Assembly: GCA_000934665.2 (NCBI GenBank)
Contig: KZ538665.1
Span: forward strand, 1-55,089
Length of the DNA: 55,089 nucleotides
Direction: 5' to 3'
DNA from: Catajapyx aquilonaris
Taxonomy: Eukaryota
Shown here one piece after another: positions 690 to 52,548 of this stretch. A model generated the notes under the pieces. The model saw only the letters and a list, made by a program, of their open reading frames with translations. It made no database searches and had not been told where the DNA came from. Each line of letters starts with the position of its first letter. The stretch's first letter is position 1. The position numbers were made by a program, and so were the translations under genes.

Positions 690-2002
690 ATGAACAGAAT
701 GATTTTGGGAGTCTCGGTGGTGGCGTGCACTTGCTTCATCGTGGGAAGTGTTTACTCGGAGGAATGCAAGACGTACGACTCTCGCTACGACACAAACTTC
801 AGTCTGTCCTTGGTAAGTCGTCATCATTGGTTTCAAATTTATTTCGCATTTTAAATGAAAGAGTAAAGAAGGAAATCGCTTTTGGTGATAATGCCAACAG
901 TTGTGGGGCCCATGGTACGCTGTATATCAAAGCGAGGAGGCTGTGACCAACTGCTATTACTTGGACATCAAAGAATCACCTGGGAGCAACGGAGACAAAT
1001 TCGACATAGATGGCTGGTATAATGTCACGTAAGTCAACAATCCATTAAAAACTTGATCAGGCAGTCATTATTTGCTAGGCTAACATTAACGTATTATTTT
1101 TTTCAGATCTTTTGGAAACGTGACGATCGTTGTTCGCAATGGGACGCTTCTGCAGAAGGATGTTGTTATACCAAAAAATGTTATACCCTGCCTCCCCAAT
1201 ATAATACCGCCCCTTGCAGAAAGGGCCATCTTATATGGTGAAGGAAAAGTGATACCCTCGACGATACTATTTATCCCTACCAATAGTACCTCTGCCAATT
1301 TAAACGTGACGTTTCAAGTTTATCAGGTGGACACATGCTCTTATATGAACGCTCGGATATGCTTCGCCATTCCGAATCCGTTCGTGAGTGAGTACAAAAT
1401 TTCGTTGGTTACCTTTTGGAAGTATTGTTTACAGTGAGATTTCAAGTCCAGTGTCTTGCAAGGATGCTTGATGGAACAGTGTGCATGACACTTGTACAGT
1501 TTGCATGTTACATGCCTCTATTCGACCAAAGTGACAGAATACAAGTACTGGCAACCACAGGGCCTCGTGAGTCTAGATTCTAACCATTTCTTAGATTGGT
1601 GCATTTTTAGAATACATTATCTGATTGGCACAAACTCACAGTAACAGTCCATGGAATACAATGCAGTTTTATTAGATGAAAACTGAAACTGAAACTGGAG
1701 CAAAAATTACTGTAAAAAGTGTCATGGCTGTCACATTTCGGTCGAATACTCGAATTCCGGCATGAAATTTTTGCTCGACGGACTGGCCACTTGCACATCT
1801 ACAGTGTAAACCCAATTTTACATCAGTAGCAAATATGCTCTTTCTTATACTGTTTTAATTTTCAGCGAATAATAACGTAGTCTTCTTGCGCAACCCTCAA
1901 GATGCTGATGCAGCGACAAAAGCTCTCGATATGATTAAAGAAACAGATCCGATATCAACTCAATTGATGCGGAAAATGAACGCAACCGATTGCAAGTATT
2001 AA
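690..2002 (+). CDS. Secreted ApoD/lipocalin-like protein, copy A (222 aa)
   Basis: Exons 690-812, 901-1028, 1107-1387, 1866-2002 splice GT-AG into one open frame, intron phases 0,2,1. Signal peptide MNRMILGVSVVACTCFIVGSVYS; TNFSLSLLWGPWY (lipocalin SCR1-like GxW), FQVYQVDTCSY (SCR2-like), VVFLRNP (SCR3-like), C-terminal NATDCKY. Gene model solid; family call is by motif only. Confidence 0.75.
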
Positions 2003-8044: not shown

Positions 8045-9340
8045 TTAATACTTGCAAACGGTGGCGTTCATTTTCCGCATGGATAGAGTTGATAGCGGAT
8101 CTGTTTCTTTAATCAGATTGAGAGCTTTTGTCGCTGCAGCATCATCTTGAGGGTTGCGCACGAAGACTATGTTATTATTCGCTGAAAATTAAAACAGTAT
8201 AAGAAAGAGCATATTTGCTACTGATGTAAAATTGGGTTTACACTGTAGATGTGCAAGTGGCCAGTCCGTCGAGCAAAAATTTCATGGAATTCGAGTATTC
8301 GACCGAAATGTGACAGCCATGACACTTATAGTAATTTTTGCTCCCGTTTCAGTTTTCATCTAAATACTGAATTGTATTCAATGGACTGTTACGGTCAGTT
8401 GGTGCCAATCAGATAATGTATTCTAAACATGCACCAATCTCAGAAGTGGTTAGAATCTAGACTCACGAGGCCCTGTGTTTGCCAGTACTTGTATTCTGTC
8501 ACTTTGGTCGAATAGAGGCATGTAACATGCAAACTGTACAAGTGTCATGCAGACTGTTCCATCAAGCATCCTTGCGAGACACTGGACTTGAATCTCACTG
8601 TAAACAATACTTCCAAAAGGTAACCGACGAAATTTTGTACTCACTGACGAACGGATTCGGAATGGCGAAGCATATCCGAGCGTTCATATAAGAGCATGTG
8701 TCCACCTGATAAACTTGAAACGTCACGTTTAAATTGGAACCGGTACTATTGGTAGGGATAAATAGTATCGTCGAGGGTATCACTTTTCCTTCACCGTATA
8801 AGATGGCCCTTTCTGCAAGGGGCGGTATTATATTGGGGAGGCAGGGTATAACATTTTTTGGTATAACAACATCCTTCTGCTGAATCGTCCCATTGCGAAC
8901 AACGATCGTCACGTTTCCAAACGATCTGAAAAATATAATATGTTAATGTTAGCAAATGACTGTCTGATCCAGTTTTTAATGGATTGTTGACTTACGTGAC
9001 ATTATACCAGCCATCTATGTCGAATTTGTCCCCGTTGCTCCCAGGCGATTCTTTGATGTTCAAGTAATAGCAATCAGTCGCAAGCTGCTCGCTTTGATAT
9101 GCTCCGTACCAAGGACCCAACAACTGATTGGCATTATCACCAAAAGCAATTTCCATCTTTACTCTTTCATTTAAAATGCAAAATAAATTTGAAACCAATG
9201 CCCAGATGACGACTTACCAAGGACAGATTGAAGGTTGTGTTGTAGCGAGAGTCGTACGTCTTGCATTCCTCCGAGTAAACACTTCCCACGATGAAGCAAG
9301 TGCACGCCACCACCAAGACTGCCAAACTCATTCTGTTCAT
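8045..9340 (-). CDS. Secreted ApoD/lipocalin-like protein, copy C (222 aa), recent inverted duplicate of A
   Basis: Exons 9340-9218, 9123-8996, 8925-8645, 8181-8045; exon lengths identical to A (123/128/281/137); open frame; introns also nearly identical. Confidence 0.75.
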
Positions 9341-22524: not shown

Positions 22525-25396
22525 ATGCCCACTGCGGCTGCTGCGTCCAGTGCTGCTGTCCTGGCGGCAGGCTCCTCTTCCCAAGCCCCTGCCGGAGGGG
22601 TGCTGCGGAAGAGCCACGGGAGCCACCACCACCACAGCAGCAGCGGTCACCACGGGAGCCACCACAGCAGCCACCACCACCACCACGGGTCTAGCGGAGG
22701 AGGCGGAGGGCACAGGAGGGCAGGGGACCAGAGCGAGGTCAGCTGCTGCCTCAAGTACGTCATCTTCGGATTCAACGTCATCTTCTGGGTGAGTATGGGT
22801 ACCACAACTTGCAGGGAAAACAGATGCGGGTACTATCAACCGCAAAAGTAATGCCGCACTGTTAACATGTGAGCGATTTGATCGCCGGCGTTGGGTAACC
22901 CGAGTGCGAGGCGAAAATCGATTGTTACTTTCAACGCAACTCAGTTCGCTTGTCAAATCGCTCACATGTAAACAGGGTGATGGCGACCGCGACTTGTTGT
23001 TCAGCATGGGTTGTGGACAAATAGTTCTGCTATAATACACCTAGAGAGAGCACTCGGGGTGAAATGTGAGGCAGGCAACAATGCAGGCGACAATATGACC
23101 ATAGTAAAGATGGCGGACGCCTGACATTATTGGACTAATTGTCGTCCCAGTTGTCATCGTTGATTGTTGCCCCAGTTGCTAGACAAACTGTTAGAACAAT
23201 AGCAAAGATGGCGGGTTGCCTTCTGAACCAGCCCAAACTGTCCTTTCCTCGGGGGGGCGTAGGATTCGGGTGGTTGGCAGCTGATGGCGGAGACTTTTAT
23301 ATTAAATTCCCGCATATACCACTCGATTTCCCTGGTTCGCAATGGCCTTCATTGGACCCCAATTTGTGATGCATAAGCAATGGTTGAGTGGCCTGCATGT
23401 CTCTGAATAATTTTATAGCGATACAATGTGTAGCCACTCGTGTAATTAGGTGTGCCAATGCATACTATTAGGTTGTCAGGGAAAATGATTGCCCGTAGCC
23501 ACTTCAGACATGCATCGTTATGATTTTCCAACAGGGTTATTTCGAGGGTTTGATACTTAATTACTGTTTCGACAGCTGCTGGGACTGAGCATCCTGGCTG
23601 TTGGAGTCTGGGCATGGACGGAGAAGGACACGTTCAACAACCTGTCCCGGCTGACCAACGTTGCCCTGGACCCCGCCTTTGTCCTGATCGTATGCGGGAG
23701 CGTCACGTTTGTCATTGGGTTCACCGGCTGCGTCGGTGCGCTCAGGGAAAACACATGCTTGCTGGCCGCCTACGCCATCTTCCTGGCGATCCTGCTGCTC
23801 CTGGAGATGACCGCTGGAATCCTAGGGTTCATCTTCAAGGACTGGATTAAGTCGCAGGCCACGTCTGGGTTCCAAGCATTCATAGTGCACTACAGGGACG
23901 ACCCTGACCAGCAGAACCTGATTGACTGGATCCAGGAGGACTGGCTCCAGTGCTGCGGAATAGAGGGGCCCAAGGACTGGGACAACAACGTCTACTTCAA
24001 CTGCTCCTCTGCAGAGGTCGGGTCCAGAGAGGCCTGCGGAGTGCCCTTCTCCTGCTGCAAGCCTAAACCAAATGTTAGTTCGTTCGTTTCATATCCAGCA
24101 TTTGGTTCTACCAGGGCCGTTAGGTTTCAAATGTGTGCGATTGACTCCCAAGACCCCTTTTGTTTTGAAATGTGTCGAGATTAATGAATTTTGATGTGAT
24201 TTTGATCCACTTCATTGCAGGAGGTGTTCAAGAATAAGCAGTGTGGATACGACGTGCGAAAGCCAGACTACGTAAGTTACATCTTCAGCATGCCGGTTAG
24301 GTTCCAGGACAGGTGTACCCATGACAAACGTTTTATGCCACGTTTACAGGTTAGCTATTCAACACAATGAAACAAATTGTTTGGGCCGAAAGTAACGACT
24401 GATTTTAGCCCAAACAATTGGTTTCATTGCGGCGAATCGCTTACATGTAAACGCTCCGTTATTAATTTTTGCTAAACGTCAGCATTGATGGGTTGGACGC
24501 ACTAAATTTCCACACACAAATTAGCCAGTTGGTTGTAATTTAGCTGTGGTGATTGGGCTAACATTTTTTCCTCCCCGACCTTTTCTCTCTTGACTGTTAC
24601 ACTGGTGATGGTAGCCTGGTGACAGAAGCACTGTGATCTACGAGCGTGGCTGCCTGAAAGCTGGCGAGGAGTGGGTGGAAGCCAACCTGGTACCAGTCGC
24701 AGGGGCAGCCGTTGCTGTTGCTGTCCTTCAGGTCGGGAGGATACGCATCTTCTTTATTTGTATTTCTCCGTCATGTGGTGCTTACCCTTCCTCTGTTGCT
24801 TGGTGCTTGGTGGCGTTTAGGGCTTTTCGGGTGCCGGTGGTTTAAAATGTCTATTCTCAAAGTCTAAAACTGAAATGTAAACTTGATAGCACTACGACGT
24901 ATCGAAGATCGTGAACGAGAAAGGTTGCCTACAAGCAGGGGAGGAATGGCTGGAGAGGAACCTGGTCTTGGTTGCCGGAATCGCAGTCGCCATCGCTTTC
25001 CTGCAGGTCAGGGTAACGATTGAGAAAAAAATGGGGGGGAATGATCGCCAGGGTCTTAATCGTACATTACGATAAACGAGCAGAGAGGAAGGTGACGAAT
25101 TCGTTTATGTTCATACCTTGATCAGTTTCAGGCCGCCTTTACATATGTGCGATTTATCCCAATCGATGCTCATTGCTGATAAAATAGCTCATGTGTAAAC
25201 GCGGCCTCGAAGTGTAATTTTCTATCTGAAATTCTCAGTTCGTAAACTAATAGCGAACAATGTACATCTTCAGCTCGTTCAAAACAAAGTGCAGATGTCG
25301 CTAACTTTGCGAAACTTCCTCTTGCAGATATTGGGCATATGCTTTGCGCAGAATCTCCGAGCGGACATCTTTGCGCAAATGGCGAAATGGCACTGA
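22525..25396 (+). CDS. TspanC8 tetraspanin (TSPAN5/17, Drosophila Tsp26A-like)
   Basis: Exons 22525-22788, 23576-24073, 24221-24271, [24615-24731 or 24890-25006], 25328-25396. Motifs SEVSCCLKYVIFGFNVIFW, CVGALRENTCLL, LQCCG, YFNCS, GVPFSCC, QCGYD, GC, QNLRADIFAQMAKWH. Confidence 0.92.
22859..22975. mobile_element. Intronic MITE (TTACATGTGAGCGATTT family)
   Basis: TIRs CTGTTAACATGTGAGCGATTTGA / TCAAATCGCTCACATGTAAACAG; relatives at about 24340-24455, 25130-25207 and 49781-49942. Confidence 0.65.
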
Positions 25397-26912: not shown

Positions 26913-29263
26913 TCAGGATTGGCCTGGCATGTCTGCTTCGGCGCCCATTGCCGAGTCGACATCTCTGTCTGAATCTATGGACGTGTCTGAAGAAAACGGA
27001 GACGACGGAGACGAAGAAGAAGTAGACGACGCAGTGGACTCCCCGCTTGGAAAGTCCTCGTCTGGATTGAAATACAGTTCAGCTCCCGGAAACACATACC
27101 GGTTCGGCCTGAGGAACAGGTATGATTTATCTGGAAGGAAAGCGGCGTAAATTATGGTTCTTACTAATTTAAACACCGTTTTGGGGAGACATTCACCTGG
27201 CAACCTGGACGCAATTAGTTCAGTGCGACGTGGCTGCCAGCAGGCCCTCAACCCTTCCAAATCGTCTTCTGAAGTTGGGGGATTTTGAGGCGGTGGAGTC
27301 GGTGGGTATGGCGGCGGAGGAGTCGGCGCCTGTTCAGCCGACGGGCCTGCAGATTCCTGATCGGTCGATGTGTTAGGAATGGTTACGTTGTCATCAGCTG
27401 GTGGCAGATGCGGCAGGCGAGTAATTTGCTTCATCGTTTCCGTCCCCAAGTCTTCCCATCCGGCGCCCAGCCTCGCAGCAAGCTCCCCTATAATCTGATC
27501 GCAATCGCCCAGCAGCTCCACGTCGAACGTTAGATGCCGAAGCGGCTCCCGGTTGATCAGGACCTGCGGGACGTCCGACGGAATCGAGTTTGGAATCAGC
27601 GCAACTGGCCGCACCTTCAGCGAGGAACCAATCACAATGAGCAAATCGCAGTCGTCCCGATCCCGCGCCAGGAGGTTGTGGAACTCTTCGGGCAGACCCT
27701 CCCCGAAGAACACAATGTCTGGCTTCAGGACGCCGAGGATTGGCGGCTGAGTCTGGTTGGAGCAACTCGGGTTCGCCGATTGCCCCGAGAGAGATCCGAT
27801 CCTCTGAGATCCAGCCAACATGTGGAACCTGGGGTCAATTCCCGGGATGGCCAGCGAGTATGCGGGAACAAAATCGTCCGGATCCATCCCTTGCATACCG
27901 CATTCCGGATGGCACTTGGGACACAGCGGGATGCGTCCGGCCAGGACCGCACCTCTTATCTCATCAGCGTCGACCTTAAAGCGGCATCGCTGACATGAAG
28001 CGGTTGCGAGCGATCCATGGCACTCGATGACTCGGCTAACCCCGGCCATCTTCTCCAGTGTGTCCACATTTTGCGTGTAGTTCCGCAGAAGCCGTCCGTC
28101 CTGCTCCAGCAACCGCACAAACCGATGGCAAGCCGAGGGCGTGAACTTCCCCGGGAACAGCTCCTTGGCGACAACAAAAAAGGGGCGAGGATCCGCTCGG
28201 AAGAAGGACACATCAAATACTGCTTGCGGGTCAGGTAGGCCTGAAAACAGATTGTTACAGCACCCAGTACGTAGCGTTGTACGAGGCAGTACCTGGAAAT
28301 AGAGCCGCCGCTCTGGAGTACAGCCCGCCTTTCCCTCTAAAGTCCGGTATGCCAGACGACACCGAGACTCCAGCTCCCGTGAGAATCAGCACCCGCCTGC
28401 TGAGCCGCAACAGTCGGACCACATCCCCGATTGTGTTGACATGCCGCAGCTTCCGTCGTCTGGGTGGCTCGCCCAACACCTGCACCACAAGCCGCCAGAG
28501 CGACGACCCCTCGTAACAATCGGAGTCTGAATCTGAATCGTGCCGCCGCCGCTTGCTGCGCTGATCGTCCTCGGCATCCGAAGTGTCATCCTGCGATCCT
28601 TGCGAGGGCAGATCGTTGAATCCCGAGTCGCCAGTGTTGAGAGCGTCCATCCCAGGTCCGTCCTTGCAATCTGTCGGGGGTTAACACAGTTATTGTTGAC
28701 ACGTACAGATATGCGTAATTGACTGAATCCATAGAAATGTGCTTCACGCTTCGGCTAATAACGTACTGTCTGGTGTACTGTACAGCGGACTTGACGTTAC
28801 TTCAACCAATATTAACCTCTCAGTATGTACACACACTTATTTAAGTTTAATTCCAGTTCATGTACTCGCCACAACATAATTATTAACAAATTTATCTGAA
28901 GTTCAAATGTGGCGCCCATTTTGCGTCCTCAGGAATAACAAGTGAGCATCGCGATGGATCCGCCATCTTGGCACAGGCAAACCATCAATAATGACTTGAA
29001 GGGCGTGGCAACTGGGAGGAAATTCCCCAACAAAATAAAATCCTGTTTGCATTGTTGCTGGGGGTGGTTTTCTTCTTACCAGGGTCCTTGGATGGTGAAG
29101 GGTTGGCCCCGGGGCCGCCCAGGCGCGCCCTCTTGTGCGGTCCAGGCGGTGGCGAGGAGGAGGAGGGAGGGGGGGTGGTGGTGGAGGAGGAGGAGGCGGT
29201 GGAGTGTAGGAAGGGGATGAAAGAGGAGGAGGGAGACTTTCTCCCTGGCGGAGTGGACGCCAT
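26913..29263 (-). CDS. SIRT1: NAD-dependent deacetylase sirtuin-1 (class Ia)
   Basis: Exons 29263-29080, 28670-28293, 28240-27197, 27130-26913. EPPRRRKL, TGAGVSVSSGIPDFR, NYTQNVDTLE, ECHGS, CxxC...CxxC, KPDIVFFGE, GSSLKVRPV, INREPL, and SIRT1 C-terminal regulatory segment YLFLRPNRYVFPGAE. Exon 1 is the least certain. Confidence 0.92.
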
Positions 29264-35334: not shown

Positions 35335-36534
35335 ATGTGCTCTGGTTCAAACAACAAGCCGAAGGTGCTCGTCACCTGGGCAAACCTGCCTGATGTAGCT
35401 CTCGACATTCTCAGGAAATGGTATGATATTTTCTCTGACTAATTAGACGTTAGCGCTAATCGCATGTTCCTAGCTGCGACGTCGAATGTTGGTCTAAAGA
35501 CAGTGTGATGCCTCGTGAATGCCTGCTGTCCCTGTCGAGGGGTAAGCATGCCCTGCTGGTTCGTGTGAGCGAGCGAGTGGACGCGGAGGTTCTGGACGAG
35601 GCTGGCCCGCAGCTGAAGGTCGTGGCGACTCTGTCTGTCGGCCATGATCATATTGATGTGGATGAAGCCAGCAGGCGGGGGATCAAAGTTGGACACACTC
35701 CGGGAGTCCTGACGCCAGCCACAGCCGAGCTGACTGTCGCTCTTTTACTAGCGACGACCCGACGATTGTTCGAGAGCCACCAGCAGCTGCTAAGGTGAGA
35801 GCCGCCTCAAATTCATATCGAGCTTTACAATTGACCTCAACAGGGCCGACTGGAAGTCGTGGGATCCAATGTGGATGGTCGGCTTGGGTCTGGAGGATTC
35901 CACTGTCGGCATTGTTGGCTTGGGACGCATCGGACAGACGGTGATCAAGATGCTGAAGCCGTTTAGCGTCGCCAAGTTCCTGTACCATGGACGGAGGGCT
36001 AAGCCAGAAGGCATGTTAACGCTTAATTCCAATGTGCAGGCCTAATTATGTTCCTTCAGGTTACGAGTTGGGAGCGGAGTTCGTATCGCTTCAGCGCCTG
36101 CTGAGCGAATCTGATTTCGTGATAGTAACCTGCCCGTTGACGCCCGATACTGAAGGAATGTTCAACAAGTCCGCATTTGTTCGGATGAAACGTAGCGCCG
36201 TTCTGGTGAACACAAGCAGGGGCGGTGTCGTGGATCAGGATGCACTAATCTGGGCGTTAACCACCGGGCAGATATGGGCCGCGGGACTAGACGTGATGAC
36301 CCCGGAGCCGCTACCGAAAGACCATCCGCTGACGAAAGCGCCAAACTGCAGTAAGCGTCACAAGCGGCCAGAGTAAACTCCAAAAGAGGTTAACTTGTTT
36401 TTAACTCCGCAGTACTAATCCCGCATCGGGGAAGCGGGACCATCCAATCCCGGCTGAAGATGTCCGTCCTGTCCGCCGAGAACGTAGTGTGCGGTCTGTT
36501 GAACAAGCCCATGCCGGCCCAGCTGCAACTGTAA
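35335..36534 (+). CDS. GRHPR: Glyoxylate reductase/hydroxypyruvate reductase
   Basis: Exons 35335-35420, 35474-35794, 35844-36010, 36060-36350, 36413-36534. AGPQLKVVATLSVGHDHID, TPGVLTPATAEL, GLGRIG, VNTSRGGVVDQ, AAGLDVMTPEPL, PHxGS. Confidence 0.92.
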
Positions 36535-38517: not shown

Positions 38518-41500
38518 ATGCTGCGCTTAACGGCAAGCAGATTTGGCAAACGCCTGGTGGCAGGCCTGGGCAGTGAGCCGGCAGTGGTGTCCGTGCTTCC
38601 GTCCCAATCACATAACCGTGGCTATGCGGAGCACCAGATCCCGGAGCGACTCAGGTCAATCCCAGAGGAAGACGACCCGCCCTTCTTCAGCATGGTGGAG
38701 TACTTCTTCCACAAAGGCTGCCAGCTGGTGGAGGACTACCTGGTCGAGGAGCTGAAGGAGCCAAAGAAGACGGTAGAGGAGAAGCGGCACAAGGTGGCAG
38801 GAATCCTCCGCATCATGCAGCCATGCCATCATGTCCTCGAGCTCTGCTTTCCTGTCAAGAGGGACTCGGGAATATTCGAGATGATCACTGCCTACAGGGC
38901 GCAACACTCCCCGCATCGTACGCCTCTCAAGGGAGGTGAGTAGCATGGAGAATGAACTTGAAGAGTATTTAAATCGACTGATTATGATAATGACTGCAAT
39001 TATCAATTTGACCTTGAAATTTTCACATCGTTATGTAGCGATCGGCTTGGTCTGCAATTCTGTTAACGACTGGATTTACATACGATATTTATGCTCATGA
39101 AATTTGACTTATGCTGCAAGTAGGACAAAACCAATTCATCTGTTCCGTAGCACATAATTTGAGCTTAGCCGTGGTGACCTTCAGGGTTAGGTTTCTTAAG
39201 CCTGTTATTTTATTACACCCCCACCTCCCTCAGCTGTGTTTCCTCCGCAGCCTTGGCAGATGGCCCCAATTGCTGCATCTTTCCGGTTCATTCTGCTGCT
39301 AACATGTGTTTATGATCCGTGACCATCTTTTATTCCTCCACCTTCTTCCCAAGGCCATTTTACGCTCTTCATCCGTAATTATCGGATCCACCTGCGTGGT
39401 CGGGAATCCCTGATCAATTAAGGCAGAGAGTTACAATAATCGAAAGTACTGGCGGGTCCAATTGTCAATGAAGCGTTTTGCATGGTTCACTAGAACCTGA
39501 CTATGAATACAGCTGATTAGATGCATGGGCACTGGCCAAGGAGTCTCGATTGCACAATGTGTAGGAGCAAGCGGTAGTAATTTCATGGCAAAGATTACAT
39601 GACTCTCAGACTTGCTAATGTTACAGACGAACCTGTTATGACATCTGCATAATTTCAGCACGACTTTTCGCTACAGCGAGCTGTACTTTATAATTATGAA
39701 ACCATGTCTAGCTGGCTACACCATAGCGGACAGTTAGTGGTTGTAAAATTATCTCTTTAAGTGTTGACAGGAGTGCGTACGATAAATGTGACATGATATG
39801 CCCGCAATTGGTGGCTGAAATGAGCGAAAGCATTGTTAGGTTAGTTGTCGTATCTTGGGGCCTACTTTATTTGCATTGATACAAGAGTGCATAAAATATA
39901 TTCCTGTCATTTCTCATCCTGCCAGGTATTCGTTACTCTGAAGAGGTGAATATTGATGAAGTGAAGGCCCTCTCGGCGCTGATGACCTTCAAGTGCGCCT
40001 GTGTGGACGTTCCATTCGGAGGAGCCAAAGCCGGGGTCAAACTGAATCCAAAGCTGTATTCGGACAATGAGCTGGAAAAGATCACCAGGAGGTTCACCCT
40101 GGAGCTGGCCAAGAAGGGATTTATCGGTGAGTGTGGTGGAGACCAGCTGATGCGAAACTTGAAAGTAATGTTGGGAGTATCCAACACGTGTGTCACCTTC
40201 ACTCAACTTTGTTTCAGCCCCACTTTTTTTAAAGCAATAACGGCAAGTTGAGTACCCTGTTGTATTGAAATGGCCCTGAACGTGACCTTTGCAATTACAG
40301 CACTTGGCGATAGTCAAGAGAACCTCTTTATCAGCAGGTGTCGAGCTGTTCCTGATTCCTTTTTTTGTTTGCCGTGCTGCTTTAAAAGAACTTTATTTCC
40401 CCAGATTAGCGCAATGAAGCCTTTTTATTACAACTGGCCCTGGATGAAGATGAAACTTGTAAAATACGTAATGTTTACGTAATGCTCATATATGATGGAT
40501 ACGTTTTGATATAGAAAATATTTGTCAAATATAGGCTCCCAGTTTTCCACTCGCGAATATAATTAATCAGGAGTCCATGTTCAACAAGTACTTTCCATGT
40601 TGCAAAATAATTCCGTGAATGGATAATCGGGAGTCTAGTGCACCTTAGTCGTAATGTAGTGAATAATAAATATATAAACTTCATTTGCTGCATTTTTTCA
40701 CACTTCCAGGAGCAGTTTAGCAAGAATTGGCTGACGTTAATTATTTAATTTATTCTTTCAGGGCCAAGCGGATCGTTAACAATTTTTTCTTTCGCCAATA
40801 GAAATTAGCGGTCTTGTATTTACGTCCCAAATGATGGAGTAATTAACTGGTAGCTGCTTTTCCAAAGCCTTGCCATTTGGCAGGAATTTGACGTTTAATT
40901 AATTTACTTGGAACCTCAATTTCAGACAGCCCCCGAAGACCTGAATAAATAAATGCACTTCAGGATTGCCTGCGTGCGGTAATATTTGGTGCCGCCCAAT
41001 CAGCCTGACACAAATTGATAATCTGCTCGTGCCTGATAAGGATCCCTCCATATTTACACCCCGCATTTTACCTTATCTGCACAGGTTGTGACATAATCCG
41101 TCGCTGTGGCAACTATCTAACGATGAAGTGTGGTTTGCGCTCATTTTTATTCACCGCAGGAGCAGGTGATAATTAGGCCGTCAATCATGTTGATTCCCAC
41201 TCTTGACACGTTCCCACCTGAGATTTGTGTACTCAGTAAAAGCGCTAGTTGACTCATGAATATTCAAAAGCCAGATGACTTCAGGGAAGGCCGATTGTAG
41301 ACTGAAAGTTTAGCGGATCTACCAATCGCTGGATAATAATTGTTGACAAGCATTTTTAACACTTGCTAAATCCTTAGCTAACATGTGCTATGCACCACTT
41401 TTGATATGTCTGTTTCAGCCTTGTCCGAGTACGCTTGGTAATAATGGTTGGTCCTCTCACCTGATCGAGTACGACTTAATAATTAGGTTACGACACATTC

Positions 41501-44346
41501 CCCTTACCACAAACTAACTCTGTAATCGCAACAATAAGGTCCTGGTGTTGACGTACCTGCTCCAGACATGGGAACGAGCGAGCGCGAGATGTCCTGGATT
41601 GCAGATACATATGCTAAGACCATTGGTAAGGACAGGGTTTCAAAACAGAGCCTAAAATGTCGCACATCTTCCCTGTTCCCTTCACACCCTGTCCGTCCCC
41701 CCCACCCGTCGACCCTCCTTTAAAAACTAGGTCCTGGCGTGGACGTCCCTGCCCCTGACATGGGCAGTGGAGAAAGGGAGATGTCCTGGATCGCAGACAC
41801 GTACGCAAAGACCATTGGTAAAATCAGCACTTCTTTGCAACCTTGCCTGGAAATGCTGTGATACTGAACTTACAGTTTTCTTTCATGCACTCATATAACG
41901 GCAGCAGTGAAACTTGGGACAAACATCTATGCTGCAATCGCTACAATTGATGAATCGCTCATTTGAGAGCGTAATGAGTCGAATTACCAATAAGCATATT
42001 GTTACAGACCAAGTTTCACTGTATCGTGTACTCCTTTTCGTGGTGTTCGTGCTTGCTTTTTAATAGTTTTTCTGGTTTCTTTGATCTTGTATACGTTGAG
42101 TAAATTCTGCTAATGTGTGTGACATGATTCACTGATAATAATCGTATTTAAACCCAAGTGCTTGTGGTGTAAAATTAGATCTGAAAGGTTTCCTTGCCAA
42201 GTTAGGTTTCCAATGAAATGATCTTTGCAAGGCAACTTTTGCATGTGAATGTTTTTTTTTTTATTTGTGTTGTTTTGAGACTTGGGTGCACCACATGTAC
42301 AGGTTGTGTGAGTGTTGCTTCCCTCCTCCTCCTTCACCTATAAAAGGCCCTGGTGTAGACGTTGCTGCTCCGGATATGGGAACAGGCCCGAGAGAAATGG
42401 CTTGGATCGCCAACACTTATGCTAACACCATGGGTAAGACCTGCTCCTTTCGTGAAACCAAATCCTGCTCATTTGTCGTCTGTAAACTGGAAGTTGTACT
42501 TGTTGAGCACATGAATTTATTCCTTACACTTTCTACACTCTTCTTCATTTCTTCTCACTTTTCATTCTGCTAAATGGTAGTCGTTTTTAAATATTTCGGT
42601 CTAAACGCAACTTGTGCCGTACATGGCCGGAGGCAAGGTAAGCATCATCCCGGCCCACCTCTTGAACAAGAATCCTCCTTTCAACCCAAACCATAACTAC
42701 CCGTTTTGCAGTGGAGAGTTTTGATGCGATTAATATTAATATTAAGTGCATGGCAGCATTCAACTCACTTTGCATCGTGTCTAAATCACGTTTGAGTCAT
42801 GAACAAAAGCTGCTGAAATGGCTCGTAATAAGTAATTTTTCGCACTTCCATAAATATTTTCCATGCGACACTAAGTACGATAATAATATAAATATTCAGT
42901 GTTCAAGTTAAAGTACATGCCGACTTGCCTTTTGAAGCCTTCACAAAGAGCAGTTCCAGCAACATGCCATCATAATATTATCCATGTTACGAGGCCTATT
43001 GATAAGTTTTTATAAAGAACTGGGGTGGTTGCATGAAGACCAATTAACTTGTTAAAAGTCAGCAATTTAAGTTTAGGAAAGTGCTCATGCAACTGCTCCT
43101 GAGATTATCTCGAACCCTTTGTTTAAACATTGCATCTCCTACGCAGGCCATCTCGACATCAATGCTCATGCCTGTGTGACGGGGAAGCCCATAAACCAGG
43201 GTGGAATCCATGGGAGGATCAGCGCCACAGGCCGTGGCGTCTTCCATGGGATCGAAAACTTCATCATGGAAGCTGGGTACATGGGCATGATCGGGACGAC
43301 ACCTGGCTGGGGAGGAAAGACATTCATCGTGCAGGGATTCGGCAATGTTGGTCTTCACACGATGCGATACTTAACTAGGTAAAGTCCGCATTAGCAGATC
43401 AGTGTCGTATATATTTCTGCGACTAACACCTTTACCTCATGAACAGGGCTGGAGCAACATGCATTGGCGTGAAGGAGGTGGACGGGGCTATCTTCAACCT
43501 AGAGGGAATTGACCCGAAAGAGTTGGAGGAGTACAAGATTGAAAACGGGACAATTGTTGGGTACCCGGGAGCCAAGGCGTACGAGGGAGAGGACCTGCTG
43601 TACGAGAAGTGTGACATTCTGGTGCCTGCTGCCATCGAGAAGGTCATCACAAAGCAGAATGCACACAAAATACAGGCCAAGGTCAGGAGAAGTGACACTA
43701 ACAATACTGTGGGTTAGATGTATTAATCTCTAATGTCGACAGATTGTGGCGGAGGCTGCAAACGGCCCAACGACCCCTGCGGCAGATAAGATTCTCCTGG
43801 ACCGCAACGTTCTTGTCATACCTGACCTGTTCGTGAATGCCGGAGGAGTGACTGTTTCGTACTTTGAGTGGCTCAAGAACCTCAACCACGTATCGTACGG
43901 CAGGCTCACATTCAAGTACGAGAGGGAATCCAACTACCACCTTCTCGGTTAGTGAGTCGATTACAGCTCAGCAGGTTCGCTTTGACTTAACTTTTGTTTC
44001 ACACGCAGAGTCCGTGCAGGAGTCGCTTGAAAGGCGCTTTGGTCGTGTCGGCGGCAGAATTCCCATAACCCCGTCCGAGTCTTTCCAGAAGAAGATTTCT
44101 GGCGCGTCCGAGAAGGACATTGTCCATTCAGGGTTGGACTACACCATGGAGAGATCTGCCAGGGTTGGTCATGCTTTGATGTGTTCATACCGAGTGATTC
44201 ATACTTAACGAGAACGTTATTTCCAGGCCATAATGAGAACTGCCATGAAGTACAACCTTGGTCTGGATCTTCGGATGGCCGCATACGTCAATTCAATCGA
44301 GAAGATATTCAACACTTACAAGGAGGCCGGACTGACCTTCTCGTAG
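38518..44346 (+). CDS. Gdh: Mitochondrial glutamate dehydrogenase
   Basis: Exons 38518-38935, 39926-40126, [41539-41625 | 41731-41817 | 42347-42433], 43147-43378, 43447-43681, 43743-43947, 44009-44163, 44227-44346. Transit-like N-terminus, YRAQHS..KGGIRY, GGAKAG, VTGKP, GFGNVG, EAANGP, NAGGV, antenna [10 protein letters not shown], ends AGLTFS. Confidence 0.97.
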
Positions 44347-44997
44347 AAGAAATTATTAACGAGTCAGGGAGTTGGGTGGGATTATGGAGAGAGAGAGAAA
44401 TATACACTTCAGAGAGAGATAGTTTGCAGTTTTTGCAAATCGGGTGTGGGATGGGTCTTTTTGCGCAAAAAATGGCCCTTCCCATCATCCGGAAAGGAGC
44501 AGAAGAAGCACAGTAATAAGATAGCAGTAGAGCCGAAAACAATCTTTTTTATTTATTGCTGTTGACGATGATTTTTCCATACTTTTACGCTACACACTTT
44601 TGTCTCCTTAACGGGGCGTAATTTACAATGCTGGTTAATACTAATAATAATTGGGTTGGGGGTCAGGGTCATTTTTCTTGGCTGCCATATGTTATTAATG
44701 AAGGAAAAAAAAAGAAGTGTTCGAGCTCTGATTCCTGTTCCCAACAAAGAGTCACTTTGTTTTCTCTGTTGATTACTTGGTTGCATTTTTCGAGTTCAAT
44801 TACCTAACCTCATCGCTCCCAGAGTTGTTTTTACAGGGTTTTTATTTCAGAATTCAGCATGTAATTACGAGCTGGTTGCCATGCAAATTAGGAGAAAATA
44901 TCTCCATAGGCATTGCATTCACGTCATGTGCGCTAAGGAATTTTGTAAATTACTTTGTTGAGCTTGAGTTTCGCTTCAATTCTAAATTTGTCTTATG

Positions 44998-45123
44998 CCC
45001 GATTGCACCAACGAAATTACTGATCCGATAGCTCCTAACGAATCGTTAGAACACCCTTTTAACATGTGCTAATGATCTGTTAGGAGCTATCGAGTTGGTA
45101 ATTTCGTTGGTGCAAATCAGGCA
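44998..45123. mobile_element. MITE (family of 31731-31853)
   Basis: GCCCGATTGCACCAACGAAATTAC / GTAATTTCGTTGGTGCAAATC inverted ends. Confidence 0.6.
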
Positions 45124-45690
45124 TCAATCTTTTTGTCTGCAATAGTACCGAATTGTCTCCCATCTTTTTTGCCTGAAATAAGACTGAATCATATCAAATC
45201 TTTTTGTCTGTGATAGTACTGCATCTTCTGAATCTGTTTGTCCACAAAAGCACTGACTCGTCTCCATCTTTTTGTCTGCAATAGTACTGAATCGTATCGC
45301 TCGTTTTGCTTGCAATAGTACTGAATCGTCTCAATCTTTTTGTCTGCAATAGTACTGAATCGTCTCAATCTTTTTGTCTGTGATAGTACTGAATCGTCTC
45401 GATCTTTTTGTCTGTGATAGTACTGAATCGTCTCAATCTTTTTGTCTGTGATAGTACTGAATCGTCTTAATCTTTTTGTATGTGATAGTACTGAATCGTC
45501 TCAATCTTTTTGTATGTGATAGTACTGAATCGTCTCAATCTTTTTGTCTGCAATAGTACTGAATCGTATCGCTCGTTTTGCTTGGAATAGTACTGAATCG
45601 TATCAATCTTTTTGCCTGTGATAGTACTGAATCGTCTCAATCTTTTTGTCTGTGATAGTACTGAACCGTCTCAATCTTTTTGTCTGCAAT
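45124..45690. repeat. 34-bp minisatellite (TCAATCTTTTTGTCTGTGATAGTACTGAATCGTC), about 16 units
   Basis: Exact 34-bp periodicity (TAGTACT at 45316, 45350, 45384, 45418...), no unique spacers. Confidence 0.9.
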
Positions 45691-47519
45691 TTAGTACATT
45701 TATTAATTAACATTTTTATAAATGTACGTAAACATATACTTCTACAACACCCAGTGCATTGAGATTGCCTAGCCAGGCCAGGGATGTGATTCTCCTTCAT
45801 GGGACCTGTTAGTAGTTGTGTTCAGAGGGGCAAAGTAGAGGGCTAATTACATCAATCTGCATATTAGGTGGAGGGGAAATTTAGACACAGGATCATAAAT
45901 AAAGGAGGAGGGATTCACACTGCTGGCAACTGGCAAGGCAAGTGGTCCCCCCACTCCCCAAAGTTGGAACTAATACTTGGAGAGGGGGGAGCTTTTGAAG
46001 AAAATGGCAACATTGTGTTGATAGAGGGACCAGGCTTATTTGGGGTCCAGGTGCACCAGTCTGTATAGTGCTGTATAGGTTGCTGGTGGTGGGAGGCAAC
46101 TCACAGGCTCAGGCAATAGTACACAATGTCCATCCACTCTCCTCTCCGGTGACAGCTGCTAAATTAAGTCTCATCCTTACTTTCTGTGGAAGTGCCAACT
46201 ATAAGGTAGGTACTCTCTCTGTCCATACACTCCGAGATCGCACTCGAATTTTGTGCTTTTGCAATAACCACAATTAGAGGGGGTTGCAGCAATAAGAAGC
46301 TGTTTGGTCAGGCACAAAGAAAGGCATGCCAATTGGGGGATCAATCCACCTGATCAAATCTTATTGATGGTCATTATATAGGTTCATGTAGATGTTAATT
46401 AATTGTGCTGGAGGTACGGTTCTTTTGAGGTGGTTCCTGCTCATTCCTTCCCTCAGCTTCGCCCCGTTATATCTGAGCTCAAATTTTAGGGGGGCCAAAA
46501 CCTGCCAGACGGAGACGATCTTGACCCACTTATTGGGGTCAAAGGATATCCGATAACAGGAGCTAAGGAGGGGAGCCACCCTCATCACAGCCTTATTCCT
46601 TTTCCTTGTTTACTATGAGGATAACTCATGTATAGTCATGTGCCACAGTGTGTGCCATGCTAAATTCAGCCTAAAATTAACTTTTTAAAATCATGATGGT
46701 AATGCATTTTTCCAACACACTTGAATGCATCTCCTTTTTATTTAATAAGTAACTCATTATCCTCACCAGCAGACTCCTTCGTAAGAGAATTTGTCTGTTT
46801 CTGAGCCTATATGTGGATACAGCACGGTCTGTCAAGTTTTAAAAAAAAGACGAGGGTCTGCTGTTTATCAACCTTTGGGCAACCTTTGCCTTGAAAACCT
46901 TATTTCCCCCTCTGGCTCTCTGAGGGTCATCAGCAGTCCCTTTTCCTGCCCTCAAGGGAGATCACATATCCCCCAAAAAGCTGCACCACCTGGCCTCGCA
47001 GTGTTTCCAGCTTGTTCACACAGCTAGGTTCCTATATTCTGACAACTGTGTCTTGCCGGAAACTTGTAGCTTCACAATCTGGTCCGAAGGTAGTTATTAA
47101 GGGGGCCTATCGAATTTTCCGGGGGGTGATAGCACTTTTTGGGGGGTGATAGTTAGTTGCGACATCGTTTTAAATGACTTGCAGGATTGATTTTGCGATA
47201 ATAATCTTATTGGAAGTTGTTCCTCATACTGTACAGTACTAATGTCATATTATATGAAAAAGTCTTTGTCAACTTTTATAAGTAGCCTACTGGTACTATT
47301 GGGTCCAAATGCTTTTGGCCACTTTATCCTGGTCTTGAAGGAACCCTTCGCGCACATACCCCACGTTAAGGAGGTGTGTGTGTGAGTGAAGGGTTGCTTC
47401 AAGGATAGGATAAAGTGGGCAAAAGTATTTGAACCCGATAGTACATCGGCTGACTGACAAGTGAGTATAGGGAAAAATATGGGCGTGAAAGTCTAGTAAT
47501 GCAGGAGCCTCATTCGCAC

Positions 47520-47533
47520 NNNNNNNNNNNNNN
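47520..47533. other. Assembly gap (N run)
   Basis: Run of Ns. Confidence 0.98.
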
Positions 47534-48335
47534 NCCCCCCCAAAAAAAAAAGAAAGAAAGAAAGAAAGAAAATTGGAAAGGTTTTGTGGGTGGCCCAGTA
47601 GTGGCACAAAGGGCCTGAAGGTACCTTGATTGGCTAGCCAGAGGGAAAGTGGGCAAGACCCATGCACACCTTTGCTGTTTTTTCTGGGGATGAGTGAAGT
47701 CCACAACAGACTATTCAGTTCGTAGTACCCGCAGTGAGGGTCTTTGAAAGCTGGTGACCTTTAAAGATGCCCAGTGGTTGATGACCATCATGCAGGCTGT
47801 TCAGATCTTCTGAAATCATGGCCACTCGAAATCCTGCCAGTACTATGTCGCCACTCTACGCTGCACACCATTCAGCAGCACCAGAATTATAGATAGGTCT
47901 ACTAACTTTAAAATAAAAAACAATTCTGGAATGGTCATGCCATTGGCAGCAAGCAATTTCGGCCAGCCACATGTGATGAGAAGGGTTTTTTTTTTAAAAA
48001 AACATAAAACATAAAACATAATTCACTTTTTAAATCATTGACATTGCTAGTTATTATCACCCAGTTGGATTATTGAACATATGATGCATGTGATATGATG
48101 TGCTGCAGAATTTGTGTTTACTTTCCAATTATTCAATTGACTGAACTCTTATAACAAAAGGGTAGTTGCTGAACTTTCTACCAGACTTTTACCAGGAACA
48201 ATCCGGTACCTCATGTTTCAGGAGACAGTTTCTGTTACATCCAACCCCACATTAATATTGTGGTTTAATTCATTTTCAGGAATTCTCACACTTTGCCTGC
48301 CATTGAGATTGCAGCCTATAATTGGCAATAAGAAG

Positions 48336-51300
48336 ATGGAGAGTGAAAGTGAAGAGATGAGCATCGAAGACCAGGTGAGGTGTAGATTGGAAGGTGATTG
48401 TCGTGTGAAAACATGACTGGAAATGATTAACGATGCTGTTTCCATTCATTTTTTTGGGGTGACATACGAGGACACATTAGAAGTTTTCTTACGTGGGTGT
48501 AAATGGTGTAAGTTAATGAATTGGGAATGGCTGTTGTACAGTGTGAGCAGCCAGGGTGGCAAAGGTCTCTCGCAATGTTACTTCAAATATGCCATATTGC
48601 AATAAACTAACTTCGTAAACTTTATAAAATTGAGCAAAGTATGTTGTGATTGACACCAGCTGCATGAATTAATAATAATGAACAAAACTTCTGATTATGT
48701 CCGATTTTTAGTTGAATCCCGATGTTAAATTGAGCTTTTTTTTCTAATTTGTTTGCATACAACCGGCCCTAAGTGGCACTAGAAGCACATCCAGTCTAAT
48801 GTATGTGTGTGAAATTATTGGAACATTAAATGAGAATTAAGTGTTAATGAGACCTCAAATCAGTTTTTAATGCATTTTTTTTTTTTTTTACAGATGAAGG
48901 AATGCTTCATCGAGCTCTACAGGCTCACAGAAGAGGAGCTGAAAAGGCACAAGGTGACTGTCTGAACTTAATGATATTTTAGTGTTGTTCATTGGGTCGC
49001 TGTGTTTGGAACCTGCCACTTCTTACATAGAAGACCGCAAGTCTTCATAGCATTAGTGTTATGTGTCTTTTGATGCTCATGCTTCTTCCCTCAACAACAA
49101 CATCCAGGCAACACCGGAGGATAAGGACAGGATTACGCGGCTCAGGGAAAACCTCAAACCTGAAGTGCCTAAGTGCAGCTGCTTCCCTGGCAGAAAGTGT
49201 AAGGCTTTCAATATCTTACTTGTAGTTGGAACTGGTAGTAATAATTGTGTCGCAAGTAATATTTTGGGTGATAGAGTAATATTTCATAACCGTATAGTGT
49301 AAAACCATTGTGTCCGTGCATATGTTTTTCCACATTGACATTTTTCTTGTTTACCTAGGTCCGCCTGAGAAGGGACCGTACTACACGCAGCTGGGAGCAG
49401 CCCCTTCCCTCGCTGCACTGGAGAAGATGATGCAGGAAAGATCAGGACTCTCCCGGAGAGCCCTCAGATTTATACCACTCACCTACACAGAGAGGAAGAC
49501 CAACAATGAATGCCCCAAGGCACGATGGGTGAGTACTCATCGTGGAGAGCAGATAATGTTTCAACTTAATGTGCATTGCTGCATCAGTATTTGTGCAGTG
49601 TTTTACTATCCAGGAATTTTAGGTTCACAAGGTCCTCATTTTAAGGTTAACTAACTTTTAGCAGAATATACTATTTTTTTAAAGCCCATAAAATAATTTT
49701 AGCTGAATAAGCAAAGCGTAAAGAAGCGTAAAGGTTAAAGTGTTTCAGCAGGTCATCATTGTATAACTGATTGGGTTTAAAGGTGCAGTTACATGTGAGC
49801 TATTTGACAAGCCAAATCTTCGCCGAGGCTGAAATTAACAATCGATTTTTGCCTCAAATAATATTGGTTACTTGGAGTACTCAGCCTCGGCGAAGATTTC
49901 ACTCCGGTTTGCTCGTCAAATCGCTCTCATGTAAATGCACCTTAATCAAGGTTATGGTTTAACTGTCATGTTTTTACAATACGCACAATTAGCCATTATT
50001 TTTCGCATATATTTGCCAAGAGTATTTTTTCCAACAAATCCTACTCCAAGTAAAATAATGTTTTCTTTCAGGAATTGTCTTGTATTCTCTAGAGGCAGCC
50101 TTTGAATGACATGTCATTACATTTCTTCTACTTTGGCCAGGTCATTAGGCGGAGCAGTCCCAAGGAGAAGATCCTCTGCCTCGTGAAGCATCGTCCAGGC
50201 CACAGTTGCTCCACAGCATGGATGATTGTCTCAATCGTGTATTGGGATGGACTCCCTGGACCGGTTGCAGACGATCTGTACCAAATGTTGCGGCACAAGC
50301 TGGGAACATATGGTCTTCCCATCGAGAGACGATGCGAGCGGAATGACCAGAGAAACTGTACCTGTCAGGGAACAGACTCTACGACAGGTTAGAATCACGA
50401 AAAAGATGGAGTGTATTTTGTGTGTACATTATAGGGGACATTGTTGAAGCTAAGAATGAATACGAGAGTTATTTACATGGCAGCTACAGTAAGAACCAAG
50501 TACATTATAAAATATATCATGCCAAGTAATACTGAAAACTGCTTGCTTCCCTAACAACTTTGAATTTTTATTGCCAGCTGGTGCATCATTCGTATTTGGC
50601 TGCTCTTGGAATACGTACATGATTGGTTGCAAGTTCGCACGCAGCCCTTCCCCTCGAAAGTTCTGCTTGTCAGACACTGCACAGGAGAAAGAGTTGGAGA
50701 AAAAGCTGCAGGCCATCACGACAAGAATCTCCCCGCTCTTCAAGCGCCTGGCTCCAGAGGCCTACAACAATCACGTGGCCCTGGAGATGGAAGGCCAAGA
50801 ATGCCGCCTCGGAACCAAAGCTGGCAGACCATTCTCTGGGATCACTGTGTGCATGGACTTCTCCGCCCATGCACACAAGGACCAGAGAGACCTCAACAAC
50901 GGCTCCACTTTGGTGATTACAATTTTTGTTAACCCACGCTTATTATGCAGTGACAATAATTTAACTATTCATATGTAAAGGTACTGACCTTGACGAGACA
51001 CAGAGGAAAGTCGGCACCTAAGGACGAGCAGCTGCATGTCCTCCCACTTTACTCGATAGAGGACAATGAAAGCGGGTAAGTGCAAAAGCAGATTGAAATA
51101 TTTGCAGCAGCAAAACATCTTCATATTCCTTGCATTAAATTGCAGTGTTATTAGCCGAGTTACTAGCTGCAGTTGTTTACTCACAGGAGCTCGTCCCAGA
51201 TGCAGAGTCAACAGACTCCAGGTCTGGCGTGCCCCTCAAATAGGAGAGGAAAGAAGCGGCAGCGTACAGGTGAGCGTACAGCTGCGTTGAAAGGAACCTC

Positions 51301-52548
51301 AGACCCTGAGACTGGTGGTGTGGGCATCGCTCTCGGGCATGGCAGTGTTATGCTCGAGTGCGCCAAGCACGAGATGCATGCCACCACCAGTCTCAGAGTC
51401 CCTGACCGCACAAATCCGCATCGAATCAGCCTCGTGTTCTACCAGCACAAGTTCCTCAACTCCAGGCATCATGGGTGGACAGAATGGAAGCACAAGCTGA
51501 AGCTCCTACGCCAGAGAAAGGTTAAACTCCACTTGGAAGGCAAGGAGGTGCTGGAAGACGATAAGTGGATGCGGCTACTCCACAGGATACTCAAGGTATA
51601 TGCTTATTTGTTGACACCACCTGCTCTACATTGCATGCCAAATGTACGGAATTAGACAAACCTGTCTGATCTGTGTTACTAAATTGGTGCTCCCCCGTCT
51701 TATATATTCTGTTGCGCCAAGGAAATCTCCAGTTAAGTTACGTTGTGTATTCCGAAAACAAATTCATAATAAAGAGAATGATTTCTCATTTGCATTCAAT
51801 CAACCAGCTCCAAGCAGCACTGTTCACTAATATCCATAGCCTGCCGTAGCTAATGATAGGAGCATGAATTGTTTAGAATAAATTGTTGAGTGAACTTCTG
51901 GTGTTGTAATTTCAGGAAGAGATTCCACTCGTCAAGATGCATAAGCTTTGCATATGCAAAATATGCAGTGCTCCATTCCTGACCAAGAAGGAATTGATGG
52001 AGCATGAGGTGAAACACCATCGTTCCAAGAAGAACAAGGTAATACGCCGTGCCTGCCGCACTCTTTTTAAATCAGGTTCCTGTATCTCATGAGCTTTTTA
52101 TGCCTTTTAGGTGGAAGCTGGTAAAAAGAATGGGCAAAATGAAAGCTCAAAGTTGATGAAGCACTTGGGAAGGAGGAAACCTAGTCAACGTCGGGTCACC
52201 AGAGTGAAACAACCTTGTCGCCTTGGTTGTTGCAATGACTTCAGTGATAAGGTTGAAGCTAGACGAGATCCAGAAGTGAAGCCTGCTAGTGGCAATGCTC
52301 ATAATAAGTTTGGTCACTTGCGTAAGTTGAAGGGGCAGAGGTATGAGCACATAAGCAAGAAGCCTCGTAGCTCCAAAGTTTCCAATAGAAAGTTTGCTCA
52401 GTTAGATCTGTTGAAAAGCCACATGAGAAGTCACAATAAAGGTCGCAAAGGTGTGGAGACTTTTGCCTGTCCAGTTTGCGAAAAGAGGTTTGTTCAATCT
52501 CGTGGTTTGAAGTGTCACATGACGAGAAAACACCCAGGATGGAAGTAA
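48336..52548 (+). CDS. Compact TET-family Fe(II)/2-oxoglutarate dioxygenase with C-terminal C2H2 zinc fingers (about 668 aa)
   Basis: Exons 48336-48374, 48894-48953, 49108-49198, 49359-49528, 50141-50387, 50578-50912, 50981-51075, 51187-51595, 51916-52038, 52111-52548 give 2007 nt in one frame. TET motifs PKCSC, GPYYTQLGAA, CPKARWVIRR, GHSC, RRC..N..CTCQG, GCKFARS, CRLG..GRPFSGIT, HAHKD, DEQLHVLPLY, GGVGIALGHGS, ECAKHEMHATT, RISLVFYQHK. Fingers CKIC..F..L..HEVKH and CPVCEKRF..L..HMTRKH. Confidence 0.9.
49781..49942. mobile_element. PIF/Harbinger-type MITE in TET intron 4
   Basis: TIRs AGGTGCAGTTACATGTGAGC / GCTCTCATGTAAATGCACCT with TAA on both flanks (49778-80, 49943-45). Confidence 0.7.

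Follow-up and report, generated by a model that had tools for sequence, protein, structure and literature searches.

The glutamate dehydrogenase (GDH) gene of Catajapyx aquilonaris carries three adjacent copies of its third exon, hereafter A, B and C. The gene lies on contig KZ538665.1 of assembly GCA_000934665.2, of which we analysed positions 1 to 55,089 of the forward strand (hereafter the window). We consider it probable, though well short of certain, that the copies form a cluster of three mutually exclusive exons that arose by tandem duplication of GDH exon 3. Exon A is used, and the transcripts that contain it skip the other two copies, which are both intact; transcripts that include B or C presumably exist as well.

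Three copies of exon 3 in the GDH gene

Exons A, B and C are each 87 nucleotides (nt) long and in phase 1-1, with AG before and GTAAG or GTAAA after them. Joining exon 2 to any one copy, and that copy to exon 4, gave an open frame of 550 amino acids (aa) in all three cases. Nucleotide identity between the copies was 0.79 (A/B), 0.75 (A/C) and 0.70 (B/C), and over the 30 residues in question they differed at 2 (A/B), 7 (A/C) and 7 (B/C) positions. The copies detected one another in tblastn comparisons with E values of 7e-14 to 2e-17; a fourth copy was not found in the 55-kb window, where the next best tblastn match had an E value of 0.04, nor was a duplication of any other GDH exon. Each copy taken alone exceeded the gathering score of PF02812 (cut-off 25.3 bits; scores are listed below). 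The resemblance among the copies ceases at the exon borders or a few bases from them, and they are separated by introns of 105 nt (A-B) and 529 nt (B-C). That the copies are adjacent, are only three in number and lie between exons used by a spliced contig (described below) supports their interpretation as an exclusive cluster.

The copies show four of the five features by which mutually exclusive exon clusters were recognised in PMC3228551: they are similar in length, have compatible frames and splice sites, are homologous, and are neighbouring exons flanked by others. The fifth is that exactly one copy enters each transcript and that every copy is used; on this point we have one spliced contig, which contains A alone, and contigs lose rare variants.

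The copies belong to a complete GDH gene on the plus strand, between 38.5 and 44.5 kb of the window, with eight exon positions, as follows (residue numbers are those of the bovine enzyme).

38518-38935, plus strand: exon 1; translation start (ATG) at 38518; encodes the transit peptide and the first part of the PF02812 match; the spliced contig covers 38502-38933/5; donor GAG/gtgagt
39926-40126, plus strand: exon 2, constitutive, ending in phase 1; joints 38933 to 39924 and 40125 to 41538 (cut +2/+1), both GT..AG; PF02812, 83 bits
41539-41625, plus strand: exon 3A, the copy seen spliced in; joints 40125 to 41538 and 41624 to 43146, depth 54.5; PF02812, 34.9 bits
41731-41817, plus strand: exon 3B, candidate exon; ag before, gtaaaa after, in frame; T171S and S172G relative to A; PF02812, 32.6 bits
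42347-42433, plus strand: exon 3C, candidate exon; ag before, gtaaga after, pyrimidine-rich tract upstream, in frame; P165A, S172G, E173P, S177A, D181N, K185N and I187M relative to A (7 of 30 residues); PF02812, 31.2 bits
43147-43378, plus strand: exon 4, constitutive, starting in phase 1; joint 41624 to 43146; PF00208 match
43447-43681, plus strand: exon 5; spliced contig, splice-site letters, PF00208 match
43743-43947, plus strand: exon 6; spliced contig, splice-site letters, PF00208 match
44009-44163, plus strand: exon 7; spliced contig, splice-site letters
44227-44346, plus strand: exon 8 (coding portion), with its stop codon at 44344-44346; the contig extends to 44472

The joined frame encodes a 550-aa product of the mitochondrial type. 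Its identity with the 30 best of the arthropod GDH matches that we collected was 77-83%, with 511-558 residues aligned; the best match of exon 1 in the protein collection was 81% identical. All eight exon translations tested passed the Pfam gathering score, for PF02812 with exons 1, 2, 3A, 3B and 3C and for PF00208 with exons 4, 5 and 6. By its sequence, the gene is of the animal mitochondrial GDH type, a Glu/Leu/Phe/Val dehydrogenase composed of PF02812 and PF00208.

A threefold exon could be produced by misassembly, if alleles or collapsed paralogues had been misplaced in tandem; the assembly is a draft and has a gap of N near 47.5 kb. The copies, however, differ at 21-30% of their bases, far above allelic difference, and their flanks are unrelated. 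Contigs of an independent run, moreover, match A with its neighbours, as well as 264 nt just downstream of C, with no other letters. We regard such an artefact as scarcely credible.

The three copies appear to have been maintained as coding sequences

We compared the copies pairwise by the Nei-Gojobori method, using the proportions of synonymous (pS) and non-synonymous (pN) sites that differ. The values of pS and pN were 0.67 and 0.058 for A/B, 0.61 and 0.131 for A/C, and 0.83 and 0.123 for B/C, and the differences at codon positions 1, 2 and 3 numbered 2, 1 and 15 (A/B), 6, 1 and 15 (A/C), and 4, 2 and 20 (B/C). Fisher tests of changed versus unchanged sites gave P values of 3e-8 (A/B), 2e-5 (A/C) and 5e-10 (B/C), and the ratio of non-synonymous to synonymous divergence (dN/dS) came to 0.035 in the A/B comparison and to about 0.11 in that of A with C. 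With synonymous sites near saturation and few non-synonymous differences, all three copies must have been translated for most of their history. Gene conversion is not the source of this pattern, because it would have removed the synonymous differences as well, and the confinement of the likeness to the stretch between the exon borders shows that conversion of a larger block does not keep the copies alike.

We also asked how the divergence of B compares with that of a copy freed from constraint. B differs from A at 4 of 69 non-synonymous sites, whereas about half of the sites would be expected to differ if B had been neutral over half of the A-B divergence (binomial P = 5e-16). Under a short and recent neutral period, with an expected pN of 0.18, four or fewer changes would have a probability of 0.003. 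The contrast of pS with pN and the few changes in B indicate purifying selection on all three copies, all of which were kept as coding sequence.

An earlier note on this DNA had described three 87-nt phase 1-1 exons with intact AG/GT sites, conserved in protein and diverged at synonymous sites, and had taken this as a sign of selection on all three. The exons were recovered between 41539 and 42433 with translations identical to those in the note, and the contrast of pS with pN agrees with the selection it proposed. Its remark that the list of open reading frames translated only the third copy also fits, as, of the stop-to-stop frames that contain the copies, only that of C is long (118 aa), those of A and B having 61 and 45 aa, respectively.

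Exon A is used in the sampled transcripts

Expression data consisted of the contigs of one public run. The type of run is not on record; we take it to be RNA-derived because every one of the seven joints is GT..AG and there is almost no cover in the introns. A 2105-nt spliced contig (depth 54.5) lies in eight pieces on the gene, with no other letters in the pieces shown. It links exon 2 to A (40125 to 41538) and A to exon 4 (41624 to 43146), bypassing B and C. The proposal of mutually exclusive splicing in the earlier note is therefore borne out in part: one copy, A, is present in the spliced contig and four of the five features of such clusters are seen, whereas B and C occur in no contig of the run. 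The outcome that the note itself had named as refuting, inclusion of one exon alone, would thus be consistent with these contigs, from which rare variants are lost.

A second contig, of 264 nt, maps with no other letters and a depth of 3.8 to 42437-42700, in the intron just after C, and starts 3 nt inside that intron. Cover continues beyond it to about 42840, while the other GDH introns have zero depth. The stretch gave no match in Rfam and no repeat of it was found within the window. It could be a remnant of the excised C-exon 4 intron, retained precursor mRNA or a separate transcript. Because contigs cannot reveal RNA ends, it does not constitute evidence for the use of C.

The triplicated segment surrounds the presumed catalytic aspartate

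We aligned copy C with solved GDH structures. Its counterpart in the 501-aa bovine chains spans residues 158-189, and that in the Clostridium symbiosum enzyme spans residues 155-185. The Asp of the PAPD or AAPD motif, which in C is AAPD, aligns with residue 168 of the bovine enzyme and residue 165 of the C. symbiosum enzyme (1bgv/1k89), and the Asp residues of A and B fall in the same alignment column. The previous claim that this Asp is catalytic agrees with its position in the alignment; we take Asp168 to be the catalytic acid/base of GDH. Likewise, Ala166-Pro167-Asp168-Met169-Ser170 presumably line the pocket for glutamate and nicotinamide. If these roles hold, the P165A substitution of C and the changes at positions 171-173 in all three copies stand directly beside the active-site stretch. 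The variable positions 177, 181, 185 and 187 are on the helix that follows the loop of the catalytic Asp. A D165N mutant is mentioned in passing in one paper that we found. Kinetic consequences of such an exon swap would be plausible on these positional grounds.

In the mechanism that we propose, the spliceosome would join exon 2 to one of A, B and C, and then that copy to exon 4. Because the copies are equal in length and phase, any choice would give a full-length enzyme, and the isoforms would differ only in residues 159-188 (bovine numbering), that is, in the loop of Asp168 and the helix after it. A would be the default in the sampled RNA, while B, with two changes from A, and C, with seven, would be chosen in other tissues, developmental stages or conditions. 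The active-site region could in this way be tuned without a second gene. The choice would presumably be strictly exclusive, and the isoforms may differ in kinetics, as the earlier note supposed.

Counterparts of the copies in other arthropod GDH proteins

For comparison with relatives we used 120 listed protein matches, 114 of which yielded 115 homologous segments. Among the 120 are three isoform pairs named by NCBI, from two crabs and a mantis shrimp, which are known here from their protein sequences and names alone; the members of each pair are equal in length and differ only within the homologous segment. Isoforms X4 and X3 of Scylla paramamosain (P0033/P0034) differ at four residues and their segments end in TFSKTV and TYANTI, respectively; X3 and X7 of Eriocheir sinensis (P0040/P0041) differ at two residues (AKTV and ANTI), as do X1 and X2 of Oratosquilla oratoria (P0076/P0077; AKTI and ANTV). 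In all three pairs, the contrast of Lys with Asn occurs at the position where A and B have Lys and C has Asn. On the strength of these pairs it is credible that crustaceans use such copies alternatively, and alternative versions of the homologous exon appear to be already present in the public annotation of crabs and the mantis shrimp. Of the 115 segments, 60 have Lys at position 185 and 49 have Asn there, so that both flavours are widespread.

The pairs of these Malacostraca resemble the present case in that the corresponding exon is concerned, the lengths are equal, the differences fall inside the 30-residue segment, and Lys and Asn alternate at bovine position 185. They differ in being two-way and in having their changes, of 2-4 residues, at the segment's end, whereas here there are three copies, and C is also altered beside the catalytic Asp (P165A, E173P). 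The third copy and the changes adjacent to the active site are thus new relative to the annotated crustacean pairs, which our literature searches did not find described in any paper.

A quickly built tree of 45 rows paired the GDH of the window with P0030, with a support of 99 in the Shimodaira-Hasegawa-like approximate likelihood ratio test (SH-aLRT); the two joined collembolan-like rows weakly (86) and then insects (85). We also searched for C-type exons. A near search of the protein collection gave four matches, none of them a relative, and a longer search gave 27 matches from 44 candidates, with no close relative among them and the best being P0002 and P0003, whose segments were 87-90% identical. 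When metagenome contigs were scanned for exact matches, a stretch of exon C gave zero loci and so did the end of exon 2.

Two further arrangements were seen among the relatives. P0029 of Tigriopus californicus (943 aa) is a gene model in which two complete GDH units stand together; each has a segment of its own, ANTMG in one and ANTIG in the other, and the halves are sisters in the tree (SH-aLRT 99). Probably the annotation has fused two tandemly duplicated genes. P0098 and P0099 of Euwallacea fornicatus (X1/X2) are equal in length and differ at eight residues confined to 514-539, a C-terminal segment, which suggests a different duplicated alternative exon in this beetle GDH.

Alternative explanations and splicing control

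Several observations weigh against an exclusive cluster with three working copies. B and C are found in no contig of the single run, a result that is no proof of silence, given that contigs lose rare variants. The sequences of the copies are a second point. Thr171, Pro165, Glu173 and Asp181 are each invariant in the 115 segments of relatives, yet B has Ser171, and C has Ala165, Pro173 and Asn181, none of which occurs in any of the 115. In A the sole odd residue is Ser172, which is present in 4 of the 115 segments. The odd residues in B and C could reflect specialisation, or else early decay or relaxed constraint. Thirdly, the nearest relatives in the tree, P0030 and the collembolan-like rows, have only the Lys/Arg type of segment.

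The remaining points concern the control of splicing. We scanned for docking and selector elements. The best three-way duplex had an energy of -18.0 kcal/mol with an upstream docking site and -17.1 kcal/mol with a downstream one, and in each case 6 of 12 dinucleotide shuffles equalled it; docking/selector pairing is no better than in shuffled sequences. The fold of the A-B intron had a z score of -1.1, with 29 of 200 shuffles as good. The inverted repeats around the cluster were short and of a size expected by chance for 3 kb, and an Rfam search of the introns gave no match. Since 87 is 3 x 29, so that double inclusion stays in frame, and since the 105-nt A-B intron is spliceable, nothing in the sequence visibly enforces exclusivity. 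Steric hindrance between A and B was considered and dropped, the 105-nt intron being long enough. The pyrimidine tract is weakest at A, the copy that is used, and B and C have long C/U-rich tracts; we can only speculate that a pyrimidine-tract-binding factor represses B and C in the sampled tissue.

These points could be accommodated if only A works today and B, C or both are recently silenced remnants, that is, young pseudo-exons that have not yet acquired stop codons or splice-site damage. The spliced contig, with A alone and B and C bypassed, would fit this, and A is the most canonical of the three. It is mainly the odd residues of B and C that lead us to give this possibility weight. A very recent loss of the use of B would also be compatible with the probability of 0.003 obtained above for a short neutral period. 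On the other hand, all three copies have open frames, equal lengths and intact AG/GT sites, the pyrimidine tracts of B and C are stronger than that of A, and the dN/dS ratios are low. Furthermore, none of the odd residues of C is foreign to working GDHs: many microbial enzymes of about 467 aa have GTGPREMAW, as does P0149, an animal-type fragment; P0002 and P0003 have IANTYANT, and P0022 has DVAAPD. Asn-type alternative exons are also annotated in crustaceans. Taken together, we judge silenced copies to be unlikely, although they deserve serious consideration.

The absence of visible enforcement raises a different possibility, namely that two or three copies are included together, or all are skipped, giving in-frame insertions or deletions of 29 aa. 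Because 87 is divisible by 3, double inclusion or skipping would preserve the frame and escape nonsense-mediated decay, and the 105- and 529-nt introns are spliceable in principle. The contig, however, contains exactly one copy, and an enzyme with a doubled or missing loop around the catalytic Asp would hardly work. According to PMC3228551, moreover, only 0.56% of exons lacking mutually exclusive splicing in Drosophila X-chromosome genes have the features of such neighbouring exons, so that homologous neighbours alike in length and frame are exclusive in nearly every case. Non-exclusive use therefore seems very improbable, and a cluster whose exons exclude one another remains the interpretation that we favour.

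Other features of the window

The 3′ flank of the GDH gene contains a hairpin-like element on the minus strand (45011-45107), which matched MIR6288, a plant microRNA family, with 44.6 bits, below the gathering score of 74. Most contigs of only 90-95% likeness appear at 44942-45742, with loose ends and a skip of 163 nt, and minus-strand frames at 45080-45821 repeat a unit of about 56 aa. The element is probably a dispersed or tandem repeat. Elsewhere in the window we noted the following, the protein likenesses being judged by eye.

1090-1437, plus strand, and 8595-8942, minus strand: two 115-aa frames of nearly identical translation, inverted and about 7 kb apart; perhaps an inverted duplication, or else both termini of a mobile element
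23561-24184, plus strand: tetraspanin-like frame
26913-28680, minus strand: 490-aa open frame and an adjoining 141-aa frame, with the look of a SIRT1-type deacetylase
35460-36376, plus strand: frame like a 2-hydroxyacid dehydrogenase of the glyoxylate/hydroxypyruvate-reductase type, just upstream of GDH
about 47520-47580: run of N, an assembly gap (X in the frames)
50511-51655, plus strand: TET-type dioxygenase-like frame
52111-52548, plus strand: C2H2 zinc-finger protein-like frame

Relation to known systems and implications

Mutually exclusive exon clusters are found in Mhc, 14-3-3zeta and Dscam of Drosophila. The GDH copies resemble these in that homologous exons of one length and phase stand side by side between constitutive exons, with one copy in the sole transcript seen. 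Exclusivity in several genes with such clusters rests on the pairing of a docking site with a selector beside each variant; no pairing above shuffles was found here. Among vertebrate metabolic enzymes, pyruvate kinase PKM has two copies of an exon, 9 and 10, which give PKM1 and PKM2 and exchange an allosteric and interface segment. In PKM the properties of a central metabolic enzyme are altered by the swap of one homologous exon, as would be the case for the present gene, in which the swapped part would be the loop of the catalytic Asp.

The human GDH forms, GLUD1 and GLUD2, are another instance of multiple GDH forms in one organism with potentially different regulation. They do not come from duplicated internal exons; human diversity is attributed, in the review PMC5192433, to a second, intronless gene and to variants of the first and second exons. 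The review deals with vertebrate GDH variants only, and the words 'arthropod' and 'Drosophila' are absent from its text. The literature searched yielded no account of arthropod GDH exons being duplicated or spliced exclusively, and Gdh is unmentioned in PMC3228551 or two of its supplements. A paper on crab GDH, PMC3355100, reports a single complementary DNA (cDNA), and says of two L. vannamei GDH cDNAs (J Crustacean Biol 2009) that one, GDH A, is 'a truncated gene'.

Going further, we tentatively suggest, with considerable doubt, a combined interpretation in which the cluster is an old, regulated three-way switch at the exon of the catalytic Asp. The Lys/Asn split would perhaps be shared with Malacostraca and descend from early pancrustaceans, and C would combine the microbial-like GTGPREMAW with an Ala beside the glutamate-binding Ala-Pro-Asp. 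The isoforms would then have different kinetics or nucleotide regulation according to tissue or to the state of salinity or ammonia. Such a switch would be an invertebrate counterpart of PKM1/PKM2 or GLUD1/GLUD2, reached by duplication of an exon rather than of a gene.

GDH connects amino-acid catabolism, ammonia handling and osmolyte synthesis, and papers on crustacean physiology, PMC3355100 for example, deal with it as a single gene that has a single product. If the three copies are indeed used exclusively, studies of expression or activity that rely on a single primer pair or cDNA would lump isoforms together, and the enzyme's regulation could be adjusted with no duplication of the gene. 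As natural variants, the three would further offer a ready-made mutational series around the active site, and a core metabolic enzyme would join the mostly structural and signalling genes that have exclusive exon clusters in arthropods.

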